The position numbers were made by a program, and so were the translations under genes. Source: Stegostoma tigrinum (taxonomy: Eukaryota). From it: a stretch of 64,000 bases of DNA. The stretch spans positions 64,546,312 through 64,610,311 of the forward strand of contig NC_081363.1 of NCBI RefSeq assembly GCF_030684315.1. Reading direction: 5' to 3'. The notes beneath the pieces are model-generated. The model saw nothing but the letters and a program-made list of their open reading frames with translations, was not told where the DNA came from and searched no databases. This document shows, in pieces, positions 9,531-60,200 of the stretch (position 1 is the stretch's first letter; the number at the start of each line of letters is the position of its first letter).

Positions 9531-10564
9531 GTAATGAACCAAGTATTCTTGAAATTCTGACTACCACACAGTTAAATCAATAAGTCAGTTTTCTCTTCAG
9601 TGATATAATCAGAATTTCATCTTTGTTGTAGCTACAGGATTCATCCCAATGATGTGCACATTAAAAACAAGTTACCGTTGAGGTTTACTGCAGTTTAAAG
9701 AAGTATTATGAACCACATACCAGTGAGTTGGAACCATCAAGGTGATAAATGAAATAGAATCCCAGCTCAATGAATGGTGAAAGTTAGAACATTAAAACTA
9801 CTCCATTGGCAGTTGGAATATTTTTCTTCCAAAATGTTGTTTTGGTCCAAAGCAGCCCAGACTCTCGATACATTGTTAGAGTGATGAGGCAGTCATTTGA
9901 TTGCAAGCAAGGCAACAGTTACTGATGACAGTGCATAAAATACATTCAATATTAAAACATTCATCCTGACTGTTGGATGGACTTCTTAAAGTAAAAGTTA
10001 ATGGCCACCAAAAATAAACAGCATAGAAATGTGACGAAAATATTTCCTCCCATTTTGCTACTTTTACTACAGTGATGGAGATGCTGCTCACAATGAAAAA
10101 TCTGTCTTTAGTTTGCTCGTCATAGTCTTTCAGCAATCATTGTGCTTTCAGACCAAATGCTTATCTCAGTACACCTGTTTCAGTCATACGGAAACGAATC
10201 AAACACAAGGTTAAGGATAGCAAGTGGAGGATGGAAAACACTGGCTCCTTAATGTACCAGTGAAAAGCAAGAATAATCAGCAGCAATGGCCCTTTTTTAA
10301 AACCAGAAATTGCAGTTCTAGATGCAGGAGTCAAACACTTGCATCGTTTCTCAAGGTTCAAAAGAACACACTCAAAGACAACACCCTGGGACATATGATG
10401 ACACTTGGTTGTGACAAAAGCACAACACTCCAGATGTTCAGCCCACCAGTTACCTTCTGCCAATCTCTGCACCTTTTAAAAATATTTATTTCCAATAAAA
10501 TTATAAAGAGTGAACCTTATAGGCTGGGCACGAGATTTAGCTGTCGTTCAAGGGACTAATAAAT

Positions 10565-10680
10565 TTCCGATGAATGGTAATCTTTAGTCAAAACATTATT
10601 TCAGTTTCTCTCCACTGATGCGGCCAGATTTGCCACTTCTAGCACTTTTTGTTTGGTATCCGCAGGGTTTTGCTTGTATT
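10565..10680 (+). mobile_element. Degenerate Penelope-tail short repeat
   Basis: ccgatgaa..aaaacatt..tctctccactgatgcggccagatttg resembles the 59677 copy. Confidence 0.5.
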
Positions 10681-10953
10681 CAACGGAGTGTATCACTGAT
10701 CTGTCAATCACTTCCAATAACACGCCATGCTGTATTGAAGCGTAATGTTGGCAGAATACACCAAGTTACAATTGTGTTATAAAAACAACTTGTCTGAGCA
10801 ACTACCGTCGAGGAGCAGTTAATATTAAAATTGTTGGAACTGGCAACTTCATACTTTGCGTATGATTCTGAAATTAAACGGTGGAGCGCAACTAAATGGA
10901 CAGTAAAATTAGAAGCCATTAATGCGAGACAAGTCATTGATAATTTGGAGTGA

Positions 10954-10959
10954 TTTATT
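10954..10959 (-). terminator. Candidate poly(A) signal of the microprotein gene
   Basis: AATAAA ~410 nt after the stop, followed by U/GU-rich sequence on the minus strand. Confidence 0.5.
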
Positions 10960-11249
10960 GCTAATAGCGAATCACAAAAGCATACATTACCAATTCCATT
11001 TTTTTTAAAAATTGTGCAGAAAACGTAGGTATCCCCCGATAGAAAGACAAATAACAGATTAAAGTTAGTAAACATGTTTGTACGTGATGGAAATACTTTG
11101 ATAAAGAGGAATGATAAAGTATAGGGATGGCGAGCAAGGCTCTAGGATTAAGAATTCGTGTGATCAGAATATTCGGTGTTGGTGAATTAACCACAACGAG
11201 ACGAGTGGTTTTCTCTCTCTCTCTCGCTTCAAAGCTAAACGCTTACACG

Positions 11250-11366
11250 TCTAGGCCCGAAACGTCAGCTTTTGTGCTCCTGAGATGCTGCTTGGCCTGC
11301 TGTGTTCATCCAGCCTCACATTTCGTTATCTTGGATTCTCCAGCATTTGCAGTTCCCATTATCACT
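11250..11366 (+). mobile_element. Well-preserved Penelope-tail short repeat in the 3' UTR of the microprotein gene
   Basis: ctaggcccGAAACGTCagc..gatgctgcttggcctgctgtgttcatccagc..ttggattctccagcat; CpGs retained. Confidence 0.75.
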
Positions 11367-11369
11367 CAC

Positions 11370-11585
11370 TCAACAGAGCGGCTTGCTGGACTTCATATTC
11401 TCTGCACAGGAACGACCCAAACTGGCGCCCGACAGGAAGAGTTCGGTGATTCTGTCAAGTCCCACGCAGGTAGTCAGGGGAGAGACCAAGCCGTACAGGA
11501 AGCCGAAGAGCATAGCGATCGGCCAGGCCAGGTGGATGAGCACCAAGAACCAGAAAATGGACCACAGCATGTCCTTCACGCCCAT
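11370..11585 (-). CDS. Uncharacterised 71-aa hydrophobic membrane microprotein (MGVKDMLWSIFWFLVLIHLAWPIAMLFGFLYGLVSPLTTCVGLDRITELFLSGASLGRSCAENMKSSKPLC)
   Basis: Kozak gacATGG; acceptor tttccag| 11 nt upstream (exon starts 11596); 56/71 codons end in G/C in an AT-rich background; no indels or stops; no repeat similarity recognised. Confidence 0.8.
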   Translation of the reverse strand: MGVKDMLWSIFWFLVLIHLAWPIAMLFGFLYGLVSPLTTCVGLDRITELFLSGASLGRSCAENMKSSKPLC

Positions 11586-11979
11586 GTCGATTTCAGCTGG
11601 AAACTGACACGACAGTTCAGGGTTAATGCTGCAGAACGGAAGGCTCCATAAACAAGTCGCGCACACAACTTTGTTCAATTTACACACTACTACAAAATAC
11701 GAAGGTGCTGTCCGGTAGCCCGGTGGAGTCGGTGTCACGGGACTGTTATACAACCCGGCAGCAACTTTTTAGAAAGGGTTTTTTTAAGACGGAGTCTTGA
11801 CTGAGCCAAGTGAGGAACAGCTGTCTCCTCTAGCTCCCGCAAGAAAGTCATTCCATTCTCTTAAAAGAAATGAACCCGGAAGAGCAAAATTATTTCGGAA
11901 AACAATTCACTTCAATAAATCAAGTTCTTACCCGAGCTTTCTCAAACCTTACCACAAGTTCTCAAAGAATGATGAAGAA

Positions 11980-12145
11980 ACTTAGCAGGTCTGGAAATAT
12001 CTGGGAGAGGTGAGAAACACAATTAACGATATGACACTTCAGAAAAGAGCTCTCTCTCTGCACAGTTGCTGCCCAGACCTGCTGAGTTTCTCCAGGTTCT
12101 TCTGTTTTCTTTCTTTATTTCAGATCTTCAGGATCGGCAGTACCT
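11980..12145. mobile_element. Inverted pair of Penelope-tail repeats in the microprotein intron
   Basis: cttagcaggtctgg..gagag versus ctctc..ccagacctgctgag (reverse-complement arms). Confidence 0.55.
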
Positions 12146-12170
12146 TGCAATCATTTGGATGCTAACTCAC

Positions 12171-12210
12171 CTTGGCTGAAGGCTACACGCGACGTGTTCT
12201 ATTGCAAAGC
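12171..12210 (-). other. Putative non-coding first exon of the microprotein gene (5' end approximate)
   Basis: Consensus donor AAG|GTGAGT at 12171/12170; intron 11597-12170 ends with a cattaac branch-like motif and tttccag. Confidence 0.6.
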
Positions 12211-12440
12211 CCCTAAGTCTACAGATCTAGCTTAAATGACTTGTTAAGAATGCTACGCGGGGCACTCAAACAGAAAACTTATACGAAAAATAAGATCGCC
12301 GTCTGATTAGATTTTCTTGTTGCTTCAGGCCGCCTGCAGGATTCGCTTCTTGAATTGAAGGCTGTGGCTCTCTTATTAAATTGAAACTTTGTTTTAACAT
12401 TCGCTGAAAACTGCAGTAAAAGGAAACGTCCTCGCAGCTG
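12180..12440 (-). promoter_or_regulatory. Putative CpG-retaining promoter of the microprotein gene
   Basis: Local CpG retention (e.g. cgcgacg, cgcgg, cgccg); TATA-like ATTTAAG at 12231-12237 on the minus strand. Confidence 0.4.
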
Positions 12441-12541
12441 TTTCTGAAAATACTGATTAGCAATGAGTATTGTCAAATATGATATTCTCGTTAAGATGAA
12501 CCTTGCACATAAATGTTAGAAATGACTTGGACGTAAACCTA

Positions 12542-12890
12542 CATAATCGTACCAGACCATAGGGCAGCCCTCATATAAGGAGCGATGACCGACGGTGGTT
12601 TAACCTGAGGGTCACCATTGCTCACGTGAGGGGAGATAGCCAGAGTCATATAGGATGGAAACATTGGCCCATATCCCTCAAAGCCTTTCCTATTCATGTA
12701 CCTGCCCAAATGTCTTTTAAATGTTGCGACTGCACTTGCCCGTACCACTTCCTCTGGCAGTTTATTCTACCTATGAACCACCTTCAGTGAGAGTCGTTCA
12801 TGGTAACTTCACCTGGTACAGGAATTGAACCCACCACAATGCTGGACTTCCTCTGGCTCACAAATTGGTTAACCAGACAACTGATGCCCA
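12542..12890 (-). mobile_element. tRNA-derived SINE split by a CR1 3' fragment (~12643-12785)
   Basis: B-box-like GGTTCAATTCC on the minus strand at ~12821-12831; the CR1 piece reads ATFKRHLGRYMNRKG. Confidence 0.55.
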
Positions 12891-17711: not shown

Positions 17712-17915
17712 TCAGCTTTCTTTGTCTTCTTCAGTTCCACTGCCCTCACTATCACTGTCCCTGCCAGGATGCTCAGGCATTTGCTTAAAGTCCTCCTCTG
17801 TAGTCTCTTCATCTTTATTCTCAGGGACTGATTCCTCTGTTTCTTCTACATTGTCAATATCTGGAACAGGAGCTGGTTCTTTAATTGACTGGGGCACTGG
17901 TGGTGGAAGTAACTG
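17712..17915 (-). CDS. AQR: AQR terminal coding exon ([14 protein letters not shown]...[22 protein letters not shown])
   Basis: Long T tract plus ctgcag acceptor, phase 0, TGA at 17712-17714; acidic low-complexity tail. Confidence 0.85.
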   Translation of the reverse strand, partial: QLLPPPVPQSIKEPAPVPDIDNVEETEESVPENKDEETTEEDFKQMPEHPGRDSDSEGSGTEEDKES

Positions 17916-20900
17916 CTGCAGACATTAAAAAAAAAGTACATAGTGAATATCTGTACTAACACAAAAACTGCAAATGATGTATGTCCTATGCATTGGCTCT
18001 GTTAATATCAAAGGAACATCAAGCAACTGTGGGAACATAAGATGTAACAACCATTATGACAGAAAACAATCTCCAAGCTTTTAAATGTACAAATCCACAT
18101 TTAGAAATGTTAACATCATACTCATTAAGTGACTCGAATTTTTCAAATGTGACTTGTAAACCCTTACTACTCCTGAATACGGGACGATACAGTGAGAATC
18201 TGCATTTAACATTTGAAAAATTAAGCTTTCACTTCCTAGCACAGTTATTTTCATTTATATATTGCAGTACAAATGAGGCAAGCTGGAAAATCATTGCATA
18301 AAGAGATCTTGTGTGGCAAGATGTCAGATTTTTTTTCGTATTAGTTAAATGAAGAAATCATCTGTGCAGAAAAGGGAAAAAATGGTGAAATTACAAATTG
18401 CTTCCCGACGTCATGGGACAAACAAAAATACTATGGACAGAATACCGGCTATCTTATCAATCTGCCTCATTTGTATTTATGTTGTAGATAGCCCTTGAGA
18501 CGGATGACTTACCAACTTGATTTATTTTAGTGCCTTTAGCAGTGAAGCACAATATATTTCACAGAATTGTTCAATAAAGTTTGACAGTTAATTGGAAAGT
18601 GCAATTTTTATCCAGTAAGATGCACTTGAAGTTTTTCTCAAACCTAAATGCCTCTTGTGGTGCAGCTTTTATGATTGCCAAGTAATGTTGTGGGGACCTG
18701 GATTTGAATCCCACCATGGCAGATGGTGGAATTTGAATTCAATGTAAAAAAAATCTGGAATTAGCATCTAACAATGACCTTGAATCAACTATCAATTGTC
18801 AGAAAATCCATCTGGTTCACTAATGTCCTTATCAAGCGTCTCCTGGAAATCCAAAAATATTCTCTCTATCATTTGGCTTTTATCTATCCTGCCAGTTACC
18901 ACCTCAAGAAGTTCTAAGAAATCTTTCAGACACTATCTTCCCTTCATGAAGCCATGCTGATTCTGCTTGATTACAGCGTATTTCCAAATGCTCCTTACAT
19001 TCTTTATACTAGACTCTAGATTTTCTCCCCCCAGCAGTGTCGGACAGATATGCTATCTGGCCTCTATAGTTACCTTTTTTTTTGTCTCTTCCCTAACTGA
19101 ATCAGCATGTAACAATGGCAATTTTCCAATCCACCAGGAAATCATTTTCCAGAATCCAAGGGTCTTTTATTCTGATATATTTTCTTAAACCTGCCCCATT
19201 ACACATCACCAGATCCAAAACAGCCTGATCCGGGGTTAAATCCACAACATATTGTCCTAGGAAACTGTCCTGAACTCAGAATTCTTCCTTGAGATTCTCT
19301 CTGCCAATTTGACTTTCCCAATCTACCTGAAGATTAAAAGTCACCCCTGATTAATGCACTACCTTTTTTACTTCCTCTTATTATATCCTGATTTATTCTG
19401 TGGTACAATATAGCAACTGTTAAGGGGCCTATAGATTATTCCTACCAGTATCTTCTTCCCCTTTCTTTCCTTTACCCACATGGTTCTACATCTTCCAATC
19501 CAAGATCTTTCTTACTTTTGTACTTAGTCCATTCTGTACCACCAAAGTTACCCTGTCACCCTTACCTCCTTGTCCTTTTGAAAAGTCACATAACCCTGAA
19601 TATTTAGTTCAAAACTTTGATCTCCTTGTAGACATTGCAGAAACGTCGTCACAAGACCATACATACAAACCTCTATTTGTGCTGTTAATTCATTTTATTC
19701 CAAATACCCTGAGCATTCAAGTAAACAGCCAATAATTTTGCCTTTTTACTCTTTTCCCCTCCCCTTTGATCCTACTGACTACTATTATTCTACATTTATA
19801 CACACTGTTCATTCCTGTCCCATTTGGTTTCATTATCCAAATAATAGCAGTGTAATGTTGTCACATTCATTTGCATTCTAAGCCTACATTTTCTCTCTCC
19901 CATATCCTTCCCCTCCTCTAATTAGTTTAAAGCCATTTCAAGCACATAAATGAGAAAGGTAGATGAACAAGAAAATTAACAGGCTAATCACTTAAACTAT
20001 TTGCAACAGTACTCTTACAAGAAGCTCTTGTAACTAGTTGAGAGTCTACTGTTCACCTGACACACAGAATTCAGCTGCATAAACAGAGTGGAGTGGGAAA
20101 TAAAAACACCTCTTTACCTTTCTGTATTGGTGCATATTCTGAATCATCTGCATATACATATTATAAACGAAGTTTGCCATCTCAGGCATGTTTTTGATAA
20201 CTCTCATCAAATGGGTTGGAATATTACCATTCTGAAAAAAAAATCAGATGTGACCAATGGTTACAGTAGAACATTTGTAAAGCTACAGGTAAAAGCCATG
20301 TTGCACAGAAAAATCATTTATCATTTAGGAGAAATTACCCTTCTGTTTGTTGGGTGATACTCAGATGGCACAATGTGTAGCTGAAGGGGTCGAGCTGTTA
20401 GCTGATTAAAGGCTGGCGTAAGCTCAAAGCAGTTCTGGAACAGCGATACTCTTGCAAAGATGTAAAGCCCAAGCCTGGCTCTTGACATGGCAACAACTAA
20501 TCGCCGAACATCTCTGGTTGTGATGGAAGACTTTGGTTAATATCTTGATAATTGCAGGTTTGCTGCTGTTAAACCTACCCAGTTTAAAATAAATTAAAAT
20601 GCCTCTAATAAATATAATTTCAGCAAAGGTGCTTTGGCCCCAAAATAAATTCAAAACTGGTGGCAGCAAACTTCAAATTACAAGCTGACAATTCATGGCT
20701 ATACAGCATTGATGAAATAGGTCAGTCACATAACGATGTACTGTATCATATTTAAAAATGTTAACCTAATTTTTAAATTGACAATGTACGCTTTCAGTAT
20801 AAATTGAATTTCAATTTTAATATATTGTGCTCCTAAACGTCTATGAAGATGCAAATTACAAACACGAGCTCGGCATTTGGTTAATCAGGTTATCCCTAAG

Positions 20901-23900: not shown

Positions 23901-26900
23901 TACTTAAAACAGTAGATATGTTTAAATGAATAAATTCCTTTTCAATACAGCTTCCTCTTTTTCCAGTCACTTTCATAAGTCTTGGCTCAGCGATAGCCAA
24001 TCTTTACTTGAAATCGAGAGTTATGGGTTCAACACCTCTGCAAAGACTTCAGCATTTAGGCAGATTATGTAAAACAGAAGTAGTATAGCAGTGCCAGAGG
24101 TGTGCATTTTAAAAAGGGAACATGAAACTAAATCCCACCTCTGTCCTCAAATTAACACAAGACATTTTGAGGTGGCATTCAAGTATTAGATGGGAAGTTC
24201 TCATGTTAAACCTAAAACTAACAGAAAGACAGACAGAGAGGAGCTAATCACATCTCAGTCTTGAAGTTACAGAAGTGTTATGTAAGAGTAAATATTTTCT
24301 TTCTTTTGCTTTACCTAGCTCTTGCTCTCCCCTGGGCATCAAGATCCACTGTTGGAACACCCAAACGAACAAATCGTGTGAAGAGAGACTGTTCCATGTT
24401 GGAATATTTCTGGAAGGCCATGTTCTTGATGACAGGGGGTAGCTGGTGATGATCCCCGATCATTATCCAACGCTTCAGTCGACTGAAGCCATCCTCAGGG
24501 TTCTGTGGAGAACAAATAGCACATAAACGATTTCCTGGTCTCAAAGATGCTGCTAGCAACGGTGAGCAATTTTTACAATTTCAGTCATTACTTCAAGACA
24601 GGGTGTCAAGAATTTCTTCTGTATATTGTTAGTTAATTTAATTAAATCAGTTAGATAGTAAGCAGTGAGTGCCTCATTCGAACTAAGTTCAGTTTCATCT
24701 ATGAAATTCATTACAACCTTTGGATGACTGTCACTCACGTATTTAGAGTCAGGTTTACCTAAATGTGACATATCTGTAAATTCAATTTGAGGGCCGCAGA
24801 TATGAGGTGTATAATTTTGAGCTGACTTATGGGAAAAGGTAACCAAAAGAACAAGAGACCATATTACTTATCACAGAATATCAATACCAGCAATCACGAC
24901 TCTAATGTGGCAATTATCTACTTATGATAGAAAGCTTACTTGTAGGAGGAGGGGAATAAAGGTTTCAATCTCTAGAATCTGTGCAGCTTCCTCCATCAGA
25001 ATGTTGTCATACTGTCAAAATAATAATAATAATAATAATAATAATAGTTTTCTTTTCGTATCTTCAAACATCAAATTGCAACCGGTCTTCCCTCCCACCC
25101 AAACAAAACGACCAATGAGAGTACGTATTGATGCGTCAGTGTCAAGCAACAGCACGCAAGAGTCACAGTAACAGAATCATACCTCAGACACAATGTCCCA
25201 GACATCTCCATCACCATTCCTGGATACGTCCTGTCCCACTTGGCAGGACAGATGCAGCAGAAGTGGTGGCAGTGACATAGAGTTGAGAGGAATTTGCCCT
25301 GGAACTGATTCTGGACCCTATAAGGTCTCTTGGCTTCTGGTTAAACATGGACAAGGAAACCACTTCCTACTGATTACCACATACCATACTCCTCAGCTGA
25401 TGAATCAGTACTCCATATTGAACACTTGCAGGAAGCACAGAGGGTGACAAAGGAGCAAACATAATTTGCACCAGGAGTTTCAATGTCCACCATCAAAAGT
25501 AACTTGGCAGCAGCACTACTCGTCAAGGTGGTTGAGTCCTAAAGGCCAAAGCTGCTAGATGGATCTGCAGCAAGTGGGAACCAACAAGAAAAATTGAAAG
25601 AGCTACAGATGCTGTAAATCATAAACCAAAACAAACTGCTGGAAAAAACTTAGCAGGTCTGGCAGCATCCGTGGAGAGAAATCAGAGTTAAAGCTTCAGG
25701 TTGGATGACCTTTTCACAGAACTGAAAAACATACCTGATCTCATCCATATCAGCTCCAGAGCTGTCCAAGACAGTATCAGTCAGACCACTGAATAGTCTT
25801 TATGGAGATGAAGTCCACTCTTCACCTTGAGAATAACTCTCCTTCATGTTCGGTGGTACTATTAACTGTGCTAAATGAGACAGACTTTGAATAGATATAG
25901 TAACTTAAGGCTCAGCCTCCATGAGGCGCTGAGGGCTAACAGCAGCAGCAGAATTGTAATCCAGCACAACAGCATGGCCTGGCATATTCCACTTTGAACC
26001 ATTACCATCCAGCCAAGGAATCAACCCTGGTTCAATGGAGAGTGCAAGAGGGCATGCTCGGAACAGCACTAGGCATACCTGAAAATGAGGTGTCAACCTG
26101 CTGAAGATACCAAGCAGGACTCTGTGCATGCCAAACTGCATAAGCATCAAGTGGGAGACAGAGCTAAGCAATCACACAACTGACATAATTAGATCTAAGA
26201 TATGCAGTCCTGCCGTATCTAGTCATGAAAGTTGGTGGACAACGAAACAATTCCCGGTAGGCAGAGGCTTCACAAATAAACTCATCCTCAATGATGGAAC
26301 AGGCAACATCTAAGTGCAAAAGATAAGTCTGACGCATTTGCTGTCTTCTTCAGCCAGAAGTGCTGAGTGGATGATCAATCTCGACCCTCCTCCAGTGGTC
26401 CCTGTGTCAGTTACCAGTCTTTAGCCAATTCAATTCACTCCACATGATATACAGAAAAAATGGGATGCACTGCACACTGAGAAGGTATGGACCTTGAGAA
26501 AATTCTGGCAACAGTACTGAAGACACAGGCTCTAGAATGTGCTGCCTCCTTGGCCAAGCTCTTCCAGTATTGTTACAGAAGTGGCATCTACCCGACAATA
26601 TGGAAAATCGCCTAGGCGTATCCTGTACGTAAAAAGCAAGCTGGCCAATTACCATCCCATCATTCTACTCTTGATCATCAGCAAAGTGCTACCAAGCAGC
26701 ACCTGCTTAGTGATGCCCAGTTTGGGTCCCGCCAGGGGCACTCAGCTCCTGGCTTCAAAATACCTTGATTCAAACATGGACAAAAGAGCTGAATTCCAGA
26801 GGTAGGCTGAGAATGACAGCCCATGACATCAAGATTGCATTCAGCGAGTGTGGCATTAATGAGCCCAAGCAAAACTGGAATCAATAGGTATTGGAGGGCA

Positions 26901-44900: not shown

Positions 44901-47900
44901 TAATACTGTCTAATACACGTTGCATATGCAGTTTGGCATACATTAGTACTGTGTTGTAGGTTCACAGGCAGATGCCTCCTTTTTAGGTATGCATGATGCT
45001 GCTCCTGCCATGCTTTTCTGCACTCTTCATCCAACCAGGGTTGAGCGTCTGCCTTGATGGTAATGGTACAGTGGGTATCACACCAGGGTACGAGTTTGCA
45101 GATTGCATTAGAGTAGAATTCCGCTGATGGCCCCCAGCTCCTCATGGATACCAGTCAAGTTGCTGGATCTGTACAAAGTCTATCTTATTTAACAAAGTGA
45201 TACTGCCACAGAATAGGCAGGAGAGTATCTTCAGTGTGACAGTGGGCCTTTACTTAAATTGCCACGGGCAGGTGCCTTTATGGCAGTAAAAATGGTGAGG
45301 GCGAGGACAAGTATGTCCTTCCCTCTTGTTGGTTCCTTCACCAAGTGCTGTAGAACAAGTCTCCCAATGATGTCACTCAGGATACTATCAAATACATCAG
45401 TAGTGGTGCTGCTAAGCTATTCTTTGTGATGGACAGTGAAGACCCCAGTTTCACTGCTTCCTCCAAGTGGTGTTCAATAGGATTTGTACTGATTTGTCAG
45501 GTGTGGGGTGGGGAAGAGATACGTGGTAATCAGTATGTTGATCCTGTTTGACCCATTACCTCGAGTCAGGTCTTTTGATGTGAAGGATTTCAAGTTTTTT
45601 TATAATGTCTGAAAGCAACGTATGAAAATAAGGGTCTTTTTATCCAGTCCTTCTATTCAGATCTAAACAATACCAATGCATCATATCATTACAGAATTAT
45701 TTATTTAGCAGCTCAGTGCATCTCATGCTTAGAGTGAGCATAGACACATACAAAGTACGTGGCTTCTTCATTGTGACACAAATTCAGATCCTCTCAGTTC
45801 ACAATTGTCCACCTCCTGGTAATTGGTTGACACAGTGGTTGAATTATTGGGGTGGGCGTGAAATTTTAAGACTCTTCCTTCAGAATAGTGGCCTGGCTAT
45901 GAATGCCTTTTTTTTAAATTAAAAATTTGTACAAGTTGGAGACAGGGCAGCTCCTTTGTGGAGCCTGCTCTCCCTCAATTAAACATAAGTTCATCTTGCT
46001 GTTGCTTTCAAATTGGACAACCTTCTCTTGGCCAACCAGCATCAACTGCTAGCTCAGGCATACTTAACAGGAAAGCGAGCCCATCCTTTTCTCCTTAATT
46101 GGCTGCTTTTGGGAAAATCAAAGGTGGCAGGATGTCGAGTCAATGACATTTTTCCCTGTAAATGGTACTTGCCAATGGTTGAACATGAACTGCAGGGGCC
46201 ATGAAATGTAACAGGTTAGAAACTAAAATAGGACAATTGAATGAACAGACAAATCACTAAATTATTAGGAAACTCTTCTGTCATTACCTCTTTGGCTGGT
46301 TATACGGGTAAGGTCCTCTGTTTGGAATCACATGAGGTTCAACAATTAAAGTTGTAGTCGCTTCCTTCTCTCCATCATCATTTTCCCCTTTTCGTTTTTT
46401 CCCTTTTCCAAGCTGCAAGGGGAACGTGATCCTAAAGTTTAGGGTGGGGAGGAATGCTCATAATAGTGATGACAAAATTATTACACATTTTTCTCATTAA
46501 CCAAAATAATTTTCATTTTTCCATTAACACTGTTTTACTGTATTCTGCATTACACTGTACAACACTATAAACAAGATGACATTGAATGCAGGATGCATCT
46601 TTCTAAAAAGGTACTACAATACTCAATTACATGAATATATTTTTGAACTGAGAAAAAAAACGGATTAAAGTTTGCAGATGTCAATATAAATTCTTACCTG
46701 AAGGGAGGCTTTTGCAGAGCAGAGTTCTCAACCGTTGTTTTAATAGTACACCCAGGAAAACTAGCTTTCAGGTGCTCAGTAGAGAGAAAGGTATCATTAA
46801 AATCTAGTTTGGAAATCTGATTTGGCATTTTAGAATAATGAGCACTTCCAGGGTCTCCATATCCGAGTATTATATCATGAAGCCAGTCAGGGACTACACA
46901 CTCTGTATTCATTAGATTGCGGATGGTCTCGAGCACTGCCTGAGGATTTGAAATTTGAAAATGGTCACTCAAAATGAAAGTTACAGCAGTCAAGTATGGT
47001 AGAATACAATAAAATTCTTACTTAAAAGAGAGAGTTATAGACGAAATCACTGCTGTTTTTAATGTGACATAATGTGTCTAAAACATATGAAGATCATTAG
47101 TTCTGTATTTTTGAATGTTATATTAGCGGCAAAAGGGTTTAAGAGTCTTAGTTCAGATTTCTCTTACGGTTAGCGGGTTTAGTTTACAGTTAGAAAGGAC
47201 AATGCAATGTCAACATCCATTTTGTGAGCGCGAGAATACAACAGCAAAGCTATACTGCTAAGCTTGTTTGAGAACTGGTCAAACCACATTTGGAATATTG
47301 TAAGTGGTTTTTGGGTCACATATTTAAGGATGAATGTGCTGGCCTTAGAGATGGTTCCGAGGAGGCTTATAAGGGCTTGTCATATGAAGAGTGGTTAAGG
47401 ACTCTGGATCTGTACTTGGAGTTTAGAAGGGTCAGAATTCTGATTGAAACTTATAGAATAAAGAAAGACTTGCGTAGAGTGGGTGTGAAGATGCTGCTTC
47501 CACTATAAGGAGAAAGAAGGACAGAAGGGCACAGCCTCAGAGTGAACGATGGCCCTACAGAACATAGCTGAGGAAGTACTTTTTCAATCCAAGGTTAGTG
47601 AATCCATAGAGCTCAGTGCTACTGAAGTCTGTGAAGGCAAAATCATTAAGTGTATTTAAGACAGAGATGGATAGATTCTTGATTAGTAAGGGGATCAAAC
47701 GTTACAGGTAGAAGGCATGAAAGTGTGGATGAGAAACATATCAGCGGATTCAATGGATCGAACGGCCCAATTCCACATCTTATGATTGTGTGTGCGTGTG
47801 TGTGCGTGTGTGGGCGTGTGTGGGCGTGTGTGGGCGTGTGTGGGCGTGTGTGGGCGTGTGTGGGCGGGGGGTGGTCTGGAGTGCAATGATGAACTTGCAG

Positions 47901-56900: not shown

Positions 56901-57241
56901 TGGCTTCACAGGGATATTATCAAACAAAGTTTGACACTGAGCTACATAAATGGACTGCAGGCAAAAATGAAGTAGGTTTAATGAAGTGTTTTGAAGAGCT
57001 GTTTGAATGGTTTAAGGAGTGAACACAAGAATGTTAGGTATTATTTGCCTGTCAATGCAGGAGTGATTCAGATAGTTCAAGAGGCCAAAATAGAAGGAGT
57101 GCAAGTAAGTCGGAAAGGTACGGGTAGATCCAACAGAGGGGAGAGAGAAAAGAGACAGTGCAAGAGAGAGAGAGAGCGCAAGCGAGAAAGACAAAGAAAG
57201 ACAGAAAGAAAGAAAGACAGAAAGAAAGAAAGACAGAAAGA

Positions 57242-57280
<39 letters not shown>

Positions 57281-60200
57281 ATAGAGACAGAGAGTGTGAG
57301 TGAATGAGTGAGAGTGAGTGAGTGAGTGAGAGAGAGAGAGAGAGAAAAAAACATGGATGAGAGTAACAGGGGTAAATTGAAAGCAGAAAAAGAAAGATAT
57401 CAGTATTTCTGGAGAGAGAAACAGAGTTAACATTTCAACACTGCCTCTCCCACACAGATGTGGCCATTTTGTTATGTCAAGAAAACAGCATTTAATTAAT
57501 TGATTAGAGTGCAGAACTTATTAGAACTAATTACAGAAATCATTAATTGGTGCATTCTCCATGGCAATGCATCTACAAGTCAGAAGCTAATCAGCACTCT
57601 CCTCTCGTGCATTACAAATGTTGGTTTTCTCCTTGAATTGGTATTCTTGCAAATTATCTTGATGACCCCAAGATAAAAATCTCTCTTAAATGTTCAGCAA
57701 CGCTCAGGTTCTGTACTACTGAATAACTAAGAGTATTAATATCTTGGTGTCTTGTGATAAACATAAATGTGAATTTACAGTATCATTTTGTCAACAAATT
57801 CTATCTTGCAATGAAGGCTTTACAAAATAAATTATTATTGTTGGTTACCTGAAGAGAGGTGATCCGATCATAGTGGATTGTAGTCATCTCATTCTCAGTC
57901 AAAGCATTTCCAGTTTGATCATTAATTTCAAAGCCAGTGTAAAACTTCAACATTTCTAACAGCTACAAATAAACAGATAGATATGGATAATTCAAATGTC
58001 TTAAACATTTTAACAAACCCAGAAGTGACTGCTTACAGAATGCAATTTCAATGAGTCAATATGCAATGAAAAATTAATTAGCAGCCAACTCAGTGTCAAG
58101 TGGACCCAAGAAACAAGTTTAAAGGTCTTTAAAGGCATCAAGCTAAAGGCAGTCATATGGCAAACCTGAGATAATCAACACAAAAGTAACACATTTTTCG
58201 AAGGTTGAGCACCTAAACTTCGCCTACCACACTTTTCCCTCTCAAGATTTAAATCGTGGAGTTAATGAACTGCGACTGAACTAAAGCACATGTAATTTGC
58301 ACTTCAATGAATTCCCACCTTAGCTTTCTCTAAGTGGTCATTATTTTGAAATATTTAAGAAAGGAGGACCAAAGGACCTGTTCATGTGCTGTACATTTTC
58401 AATTGTTCATTAGCTACTGAGGACAATAATTGAAGCACTTTTCCCTTTATATTCTGAAATTACAGAATGTTACCCTTCAATTTAACGTGACTAAACTGAT
58501 TATACCGAAAAGGTACATGACACAGGTGAACGCTTAAACCTTAAGAGAAGTTGAGAGCTGACAGCCAAAACAAAGCTTGACCTGCGAATATTAGTTGGTC
58601 AAGAGCTTACAAACATGCAGCATCTACGCCAGAGATGCCTAAGCTTTGGTCTTTGACAGTCATGCAGTTGATCTTGAGCACCATAGACTGAGAGGCCAGG
58701 GGTGGAAGGATTTAAAGTTCACACCACTGCTGTTATGATGCACTGTGGTAATGCACCATAAACTCAGCCACAAATTCTGCTGTGCCTTGAGTTGTACCAA
58801 ATGTTAAACATTATTTTTAAAGGTACAGAGAGTGGTCCAAATTAACAGAATTTCAGACCAAGTTGATAGAAAGCATGGGCCAGGTTTCTGTGCTAAAACA
58901 AGAATTGTTATTTATTGTAAGTAATTATGTCATAGTTATGGGTAAGCAGACATAAATCACTGGCATATAACAATACTAATTAAAACTCTATTCCTCTTAT
59001 TACTCCATCTTATACATACACAGACAAACAATGAAAATAGATTATTAGCAGAGGTAGGAAAAACTGGAAAGGCACTGCAGTAGTCTTTGCTTCTTGCTTC
59101 TGATCATGAAGATGATCTTTCTTCAGCTGACCAAGTTCTTGGTCAGTTTTTGTTTCCGCTGGAAGCTTCTGCTGGTTTGACTGATTCAGTTTTAGAATGT
59201 CTCTGATTCACCGCTTAAAAATCACAAACCACAGCTGCAGGAATGATTTTCTTGAAGTTTTTTTTTACTGCAGAGACCAGGCAGCTTCTGTTGGGGAGAA
59301 TAAATGAACTCACTGGTGTGCCTGCAGCACTGGAACTGGGAGCAAGTTATAATCTGCTCAGCTAGCTAAGAACCAATCAATCAGCTTCATTTGTAAGCAA
59401 GTCCTTGGTTAGTGACCATCGCACATTGCAAACACCAGCAGTCACAAAAACATCAGACGGAAAGATATCATGTTCCTAGCCGTGAAACGATGCAACCACA
59501 GGCCAATTCCTGCCTTATATAAAAAAAATTCTCTCTCACTGCAGTCCACAGTTTCTAGAAATATGATAAAAAAGACAGCGTCCTTACTCTGTGACAGCTA
59601 TATTAATCTCCAGACCCTGTTCCAGATTCACAAGATGGCCAAACCAACCAATGTGCAACACAAGTACAATAGGTATCTGAGGAAGGGTCACTTGATCCAA
59701 AACATTAACTCTGATTTATTTCCACAGATGCTGCCAAACTCGCTTAGCGTTTCCAGCAATTTCCGTTTTTGTTCCTGATTTACAGCATCTGCAGTTCTTC
59801 CAGGTTTTACAATAGGTATCAGTTGCCTGGGTTTTCATGCGATATATGTGACCAATAGACAACTGCACGCATAACTTTGATCTAAGCTCATGCTGAATAA
59901 TGACCAATCAGACAAAGCATCATAAGAGACAAAGTCCTGAAGGGTGGATTAGCAGTTGAAGGTTGGGAAAACAATAAAAAAAAAGCATAAAGCACAGAAT
60001 GAAATGATCTATTCTTTAGCAAGGTATCACAACTCTGCATATCATACTTAAACCACAGGAGGCCAGAAATCCCTCTGCAAATGACAATCTCTATCCAAAA
60101 ATTGAGAAACAGAGCTTAAACTGAACAGTCCCTCCAATATCACAGAGATAATTCTCATTCTGTGGTCATTACAAAATTATCAAACTCTCATCTCTGCAGC

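Follow-up and report, generated by a model that had tools for sequence, protein, structure and literature searches.

A spliced two-exon gene downstream of AQR in Stegostoma tigrinum encodes a 71-residue member of an old, apparently undescribed family of small hydrophobic proteins

Gene structure and splicing

The window (the whole stretch of Stegostoma tigrinum DNA that was analysed, 64,000 nucleotides) contains on its minus strand a genuine spliced two-exon gene for a 71-aa protein, here called P1. Non-coding exon 1 lies at 12171..12382 (coverage reaches at least 12364 in run X17 and 12382 in run X6). It is followed by a GT-AG intron of 567 nt within the 5' UTR (11604..12170) and by a single coding exon (CDS 11370..11585). 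Translation starts at 11585 in the context gacATGG and stops at 11372-11370. The first AATAAA after the stop (10954..10959, minus strand) lies 411 nt downstream and is the likely poly(A) signal. Start, 71-codon frame, third-position GC content (GC3, 79%) and AATAAA agreed with an earlier note made from the sequence of this window, and the paralogues described below place the frame far beyond chance. The upstream neighbour on the same strand is AQR, with its last coding exon (17712..17924) 5.3 kb from exon 1 and a Pfam match to the Aquarius insert domain at 46700-47017. Simple repeats in the AQR introns, at 24821-25168 (Asn run) and 57015-57434 (Leu-Ser and His-Thr runs), give chance frames and are ordinary microsatellites. 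Searches for tRNAs and Rfam families around P1 returned no match.

The splice joint 11603->12171 was found in a 361-nt contig of run X17 (organism B) with 159 letters on the shorter side. X17 is RNA by guess only, and its joint, the sole one listed, comes from a relative and not from Stegostoma tigrinum. The exon end at 12171 and the donor AAG|GTGAGT, both proposed in the earlier note, are present in the sequence and are used in this joint. Candidate AG acceptors occur at two sites 7 nt from each other: tcAG ending at 11604 and ccAG ending at 11597. The earlier note had chosen the latter, with an intron of 574 nt. Its two-exon GT-AG structure held, but X17 uses the AG ending at 11604, and the 574-nt form was not seen among the listed splice joints (one, X17). 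The ORF is identical with either acceptor. In a second study of organism B, a contig of run X6 covers 11370-11603 plus 78 further letters, and rows at 12205-12233 have equal depth. Contigs of run X5 (organism B) break at 11604 and 12171, and X5 also holds intron pieces. There is no row for the joint 11603->12171 among the X6 and X5 rows listed, and the pattern may be read as this same joint. In organism C, DNA runs X7 and X12 show the intron unbroken; the joined form is therefore not the genomic state there. Organism B contigs extend 3' to 11032 and 11059, toward the AATAAA. Three small runs from Stegostoma tigrinum (X16, X18, X22) cover repeats only and are uninformative on P1 expression.

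Repeats and CpG retention

High-copy repeats flank P1 upstream (12511-12874) and in the 3' UTR (about 11231-11369), and a repeat fragment lies inside the intron near 12020-12141. The 3' element (11231..11369) is SINE-like, was recognised by contig depth and adjoins the stop codon. Summed contig depth was 1e5-3e6 at 11227-11363 and only 7-23 over the P1 CDS. Contigs of organisms B and C jump from 11206-11230 to 11370, and the element is thus absent there; as an insertion present in Stegostoma tigrinum and absent from organisms B and C, it is usable as a phylogenetic marker.

CpG observed/expected ratios were 0.50-1.11 over 10501-12750 (500-nt windows), compared with 0.26 (median) and 0.66 (95th percentile) for the window. 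The earlier note had described CpG retention upstream of the gene; the retention is real but extends over the whole of P1. With a GC content of only 36-52%, this domain is not a classical island. GC3 was 0.789 in P1, 0.43 in P2 and 0.35 in P3, and computed CpG ratios gave no sign of retention over the latter two. High GC3 together with CpG retention in P1 alone suggests that this copy only may be hypomethylated in the germline.

Tandem paralogues and gene neighbourhood

In the genome search, eight candidates were scored and three copies were found, all on the same contig, on the minus strand and head to tail. Besides P1 these are P2 (C12:64544383-64544601, 1.7 kb left of the window edge) and P3 (C12:64524023-64524241, 22 kb left of the window), both intact with 72 aa and 56% and 46% identical to P1 (E 3e-25 and 1.5e-16). 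A distant family member used as query recovered the same three copies and nothing else at E<0.7 (nine candidates scored; 3.2 Gb genome). The two paralogues lie beyond the window edge and were absent from the earlier note. Each has at least two candidate AGs within 60 nt of its ATG (L002, L003 1717-1776), and no clear upstream exon was identified for either. Downstream of P2 and of P3, some 2.8 kb and 22.8 kb to the left of the window (L007, L009), there are 54-nt stretches that are 78% alike; they may represent a common 3' UTR element or belong to a repeat.

Along the minus strand, AQR is followed by P1, P2 and P3, then by an actin gene at 35.6-39 kb and a connexin at 47 kb to the left of the window; we take these last two genes to be ACTC1 and GJD2. 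Gene lists of chicken and stickleback are consistent with this naming (PMC8469556, PMC4880927). Public gene models point to a similar layout elsewhere. In P0175 (piranha) and P0028 AQR C-terminal sequence is fused to the family domain, in P0031 the domain is fused to an actin piece, and cobra model P0022 consists of two tandem copies of the domain. These four models are probably annotation errors that hide the gene, although AQR read-through is possible. The same layout recurs on a fish-type contig (L032), where there is one coding exon and acceptor-like sequence precedes the ATG by 6 nt. Judged by the order in the Stegostoma tigrinum genome and the AQR or actin fusions of fish gene models, placement between AQR and actin appears to be common to shark and fish, the evidence from the gene models being indirect.

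Family breadth and possible loss

A single-sequence word search with P1 found nothing, and a profile of the three paralogues was therefore needed. It retrieved 21 proteins among 39 candidates, the best relatives at E 1e-34. The wider family comprised 189 clusters (50% identity) at E 0.001 or better, 150 of which were listed, and a profile of 112 rows added 22 proteins. P1 itself gave a significant full-length profile match that includes W12, L16, W/P21-22, Y31, P36, C40 and C60. One of the 150 listed matches, the 1121-aa repeat protein P0045, was a false match and was dropped. Eight fetched proteins had two family matches and mostly look like fused or mis-spliced gene models.

Named orthologues came from 15 teleost genera, four frog genera (including Xenopus), two salamanders, two turtle genera (sea turtles) and three squamates (cobra and two lizards). 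Further named members were from catshark, lamprey, annelid, barnacle, beetles, cockroach, midge, butterfly and the amoebozoan Arcella intermedia. All named records are annotated as 'hypothetical', 'unnamed' or 'uncharacterized' (for example KAE8587505.1 of Xenopus tropicalis, GCB64816.1 of Scyliorhinus torazame, LOC110992220 of Pieris rapae and A0A6B2LWL6 of Arcella intermedia). The supposition of an ancient family of small uncharacterised hydrophobic proteins reaching invertebrates and protists was borne out by these profile matches; for protists, the evidence consists of the one Arcella record, which may be a contaminant. Among vertebrates the gene is not confined to cartilaginous fish, contrary to what the earlier note had supposed. 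The matches to transposon proteins or named genes that it had wanted sought were not found in Pfam, PDB or profile searches. In the Atlas language model, three arthropod-rich clusters scored 0.92-0.93 against P1 and have no Pfam 38.1 family in common. In five insect-type sequences (P0195-P0199) the predicted frame runs off at the same place past the C40 region, which points to an intron inside the coding sequence at that point, in contrast to the one coding exon of the vertebrate loci seen.

Among 30 proteins looked up by name, none was from a bird, a mammal or a plant, and many records are nameless. A rough tree was calculated from 51 rows and 71 columns, leaving out P0082 and most invertebrate rows; 12 of 48 branches were well supported. 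One group (support 99/92) inside the reptile-containing clade unites the intact P0018 with the partial P0036, P0039, P0040 and P0164. In these four and in P0082 the frame seems to be disrupted, at differing positions, by frame shifts or an early stop, and some broken amniote-type copies were found on many contigs. The broken copies point to a putative decay in one amniote lineage, and loss of the gene in some amniotes is plausible.

No published description of the family or its locus was found in the literature searched (most subscription journals lie outside it), nor any mention there of six identifiers of the hypothetical-protein records. This is apparently an old, undescribed family whose members have already been deposited as scattered hypothetical proteins.

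Selection and divergence

Across 68 codons, identity among the paralogues was highest at second positions (78-87%), lower at first (63-71%) and lowest at third (37-51%). Their pN/pS was 0.32-0.45, with silent sites near saturation. Between P1 and organism B, nine differences were counted in 11370-11604 without gaps; four of the eight listed are silent and four change a residue, corresponding to a ratio of about 0.3 (about 50 and 155 sites, computed by hand, too few to test). In organism C one gap letter falls somewhere in 11370-12090, its position not being among the rows listed. Regarding frame disruption in related sharks, which the earlier note had named as a check, the frame is thus gap-free in organism B, with one unplaced gap letter in organism C. 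Together these comparisons support codon-level constraint on P1.

That the ORF arose by chance or from a transposon and has no function is highly improbable. High-copy repeats do flank the gene and interrupt its UTR and intron, but the CDS is low-copy (three places in 3.2 Gb among the scored candidates) and free of Pfam matches, it is spliced in a relative and conserved to insects and an amoeba, and second positions exceed third positions in identity among the paralogues as given above.

In the tree, end branches were 0.51 for P1, 0.64 for P3 and 0.015 for P2. P1 may be less constrained than P2, given its long branch. It is accordingly possible, at somewhat worse than even chances, that the family is functional but that P1 has become a duplicate specialised for a tissue or the germline, evolving fast under relaxed constraint, with the ancestral role left to P2. 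The branch lengths, the residue changes among half of the listed differences to organism B, and the GC3 and CpG retention peculiar to P1 speak for such specialisation. On the other side, the frame is gap-free in organism B with a ratio still near 0.3, spliced contigs exist, and the P2 branch is short in part through a close orthologue in the tree. This reading is compatible with the explanation of protein function preferred below.

Protein features

Alignment columns 7-43 are almost free of charge. Around P22, the stretch without charge measures 41 residues in the median and 30 or more in 107 of 112 aligned members. W12, L16 and Y31 are conserved in at least 90%, the prolines P22, P36 and P57 in 75%, 83% and 68%, respectively (P57 is mostly Gly in jawed vertebrates). 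The number of cysteines per domain varies from 1 to 12, with conservation above 50% only at C40 (89%), C60 (72%) and C71. Twenty-nine members carry only C40 and ten only C60 (Fisher p 0.5), so these losses are independent; C71 co-occurs weakly with C40 (p 0.02) and C60 (p 0.035), uncorrected for relatedness. Among 95 members with a nearby Met, 67 have Gly2 or a Cys ahead of W12 (start Met guessed, no background rate). Many vertebrate members have N-terminal cysteine clusters, while P1 itself has no N-terminal Cys. The mean number of K+R was 3.4 on the C-terminal side vs 0.42 on the N-terminal side.

Across the family, the hydrophobic moment is 0.3-0.7 in residues 10-47 and climbs to 1.5-1.6 in residues 43-56. 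AlphaFold2 (112 rows) gave an all-helical monomer (pLDDT 91.9, pTM 0.67) with helices 3-41, 44-54 and 56-66, the latter two amphipathic and followed by the terminal Cys. The first helix passes unbroken through P22, without a tight hairpin. In the Pfam copy scanned, P1 matched no family and the 112 members gave scattered weak matches only. The PDB sequence search found no solved relative (one match at E 9.6), and Foldseek returned no match at E 0.001 against PDB and viral structures. The best VIA-align Z was 6.9, none reaching 8, and the matches were generic helical hairpins. For the modelled structure, this is taken to indicate neither a new fold nor kinship.

Proposed function and alternatives

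The explanation preferred here, although with less than even confidence, is that of a cysteine-acylated membrane microprotein that organises the membrane from its cytosolic side by means of a hydrophobic helix longer than a normal span and a pair of amphipathic ones. The length of the uncharged run (too long for one upright span), the amphipathic C-terminal part, the members with Gly2 or an early Cys and the plasma-membrane location of the look-alike plant TAXIMINs count in its favour. Residues 7-43 would be tilted or re-entrant in the bilayer, without a cleaved signal. Both termini would be cytosolic and lipid-bearing, with acyl chains at the N-terminal Gly or Cys, C40, C60 and the terminal C71. 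The independent loss of C40 and C60 fits acylation better than a fixed disulfide; the weak co-occurrence of C71 with both leaves some disulfide possible. Helices 44-54 and 56-66 would lie in the membrane surface, where the copies could act as a wedge or small scaffold, and a membrane patch would be organised or bent in the manner of caveolin or reticulon hairpins, without kinship to them.

The main rival, which we consider unlikely though still a serious contender, holds that the protein spans the membrane once and serves as an accessory subunit, tuning a pump, channel or lipid enzyme in the way of sarcolipin, FXYD and PMP3/RCI2. The small size of the protein is in its favour, and two observations that count against the organiser count for it: the basic residues on the C-terminal side equally fit a single tilted span with the N-terminus outside and the C-terminus inside, and the modelled helix has no break at P22. 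The missing N-terminal Cys of P1 is a further point against the organiser. The near-invariant W12, L16 and Y31 in the membrane segment resemble a binding face, and diverging tandem paralogues could serve different tissues. However, the uncharged stretch has almost double the length of a usual span (about 20-23 residues), the Pfam and PDB searches brought up no known regulator, and the N-terminal cysteine clusters of many vertebrate members point to an N-terminus in the cytosol. Much less probable is that the protein is secreted as a cysteine-rich signalling peptide after cleavage of an N-terminal signal, the role proposed for plant TAXIMIN. TAXIMIN was the top named Atlas cluster for the shark and Xenopus proteins (0.80), and it is described as a peptide of 73-75 aa that has six Cys and three conserved Pro and is secreted after cleavage of its signal as a mature peptide of 46 aa (PMC4526920). 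In the family, on the contrary, hydrophobicity extends past residue 27 as far as residue 43, leaving no polar mature part, the N-terminus is not basic, and the conserved members among 1-12 Cys per domain lack strict pairing. For TAXIMIN itself, TAX1-Venus stayed at the membrane (PMC4526920).

A 70-residue protein that has been retained in organisms as distant as an amoeba, insects, sharks, fish, frogs and reptiles, and that has neither a name nor a family in the Pfam library scanned nor a paper in the literature searched, offers an unusual opportunity for study; its single coding exon makes it directly testable by knock-out in Xenopus or a model fish. If the gene was lost in mammals or birds, the AQR-ACTC1-GJD2 interval, although well studied, would gain a further gene loss, and it would be clear why annotation centred on human genes overlooked the family.

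Comparison with known systems

Sarcolipin/phospholamban, FXYD and PMP3/RCI2 are small, hydrophobic proteins that are often encoded by one coding exon behind a non-coding exon. The present family resembles them in all these respects; it differs in its much longer hydrophobic segment, which is followed by two amphipathic helices. None of these families was among the Pfam rows listed for members.

Caveolins possess a long Pro-kinked hydrophobic helix followed by Cys-bearing amphipathic helices, an arrangement that the family resembles. Unlike caveolins, it has no beta-strand in its monomer model (a strand could form in an oligomer), and its length is about 70 residues vs 133 positions of the Pfam profile. 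Kinship with caveolin (PF01146) was rejected: comparison by HHalign with four caveolin exons of the Stegostoma tigrinum genome gave a probability of 0.9% and a score of 13.7, vs 15.4 with the family reversed and as much as 18.1 in a set of 30 shuffles, and only 1 of 112 members matched the caveolin Pfam family (E 0.0024, 18.3 bits, below the cut-off of 25). The true caveolins of this genome lie elsewhere. Caveolin exons were seen at several loci (L017-L025; C13, C22, C285), four matches having internal stops, and two copies on C13, about 1 Mb apart and in opposite orientation, are 99% identical in protein. Seven structural elements including the beta-strand are given for caveolins (PMC12330381).

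The nearest named look-alike by the Atlas language model is TAXIMIN (PF28483; TbTAX of Taxus, TAX1/TAX2 of Arabidopsis). Shark and Xenopus queries scored 0.79-0.80, short of 0.9, with 168-173 of 256 features in common, a level that a third of shuffled proteins reach at 0.80; 3 of the 10 best named matches belong to the TAXIMIN family. That the three closest Atlas clusters have no Pfam 38.1 family in common argues against plain membership. The TAXIMIN paper describes very hydrophobic proteins, two-exon genes, two Arabidopsis paralogues and plasma-membrane localisation (PMC4526920). Set against this account, the family is alike in its length of about 70 aa, its hydrophobicity, its conserved Cys, its three conserved Pro and its two exons, with a membrane location predicted here. 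Against the six Cys described there, only C40, C60 and C71 are conserved above 50% here. Kinship with TAXIMIN, compared by description and language model and not by sequence, is therefore a doubtful lead only. With similarly low confidence, the family and plant TAXIMIN might be two branches of a eukaryote-old superfamily, in which TAXIMIN would be uncleaved and lipid-anchored, and the animal gene would have been kept beside AQR and actin from sharks to reptiles and have decayed in some amniotes, perhaps mammals or birds. If the two are kin, the accepted view of the plant 'signalling peptide' would need revising.
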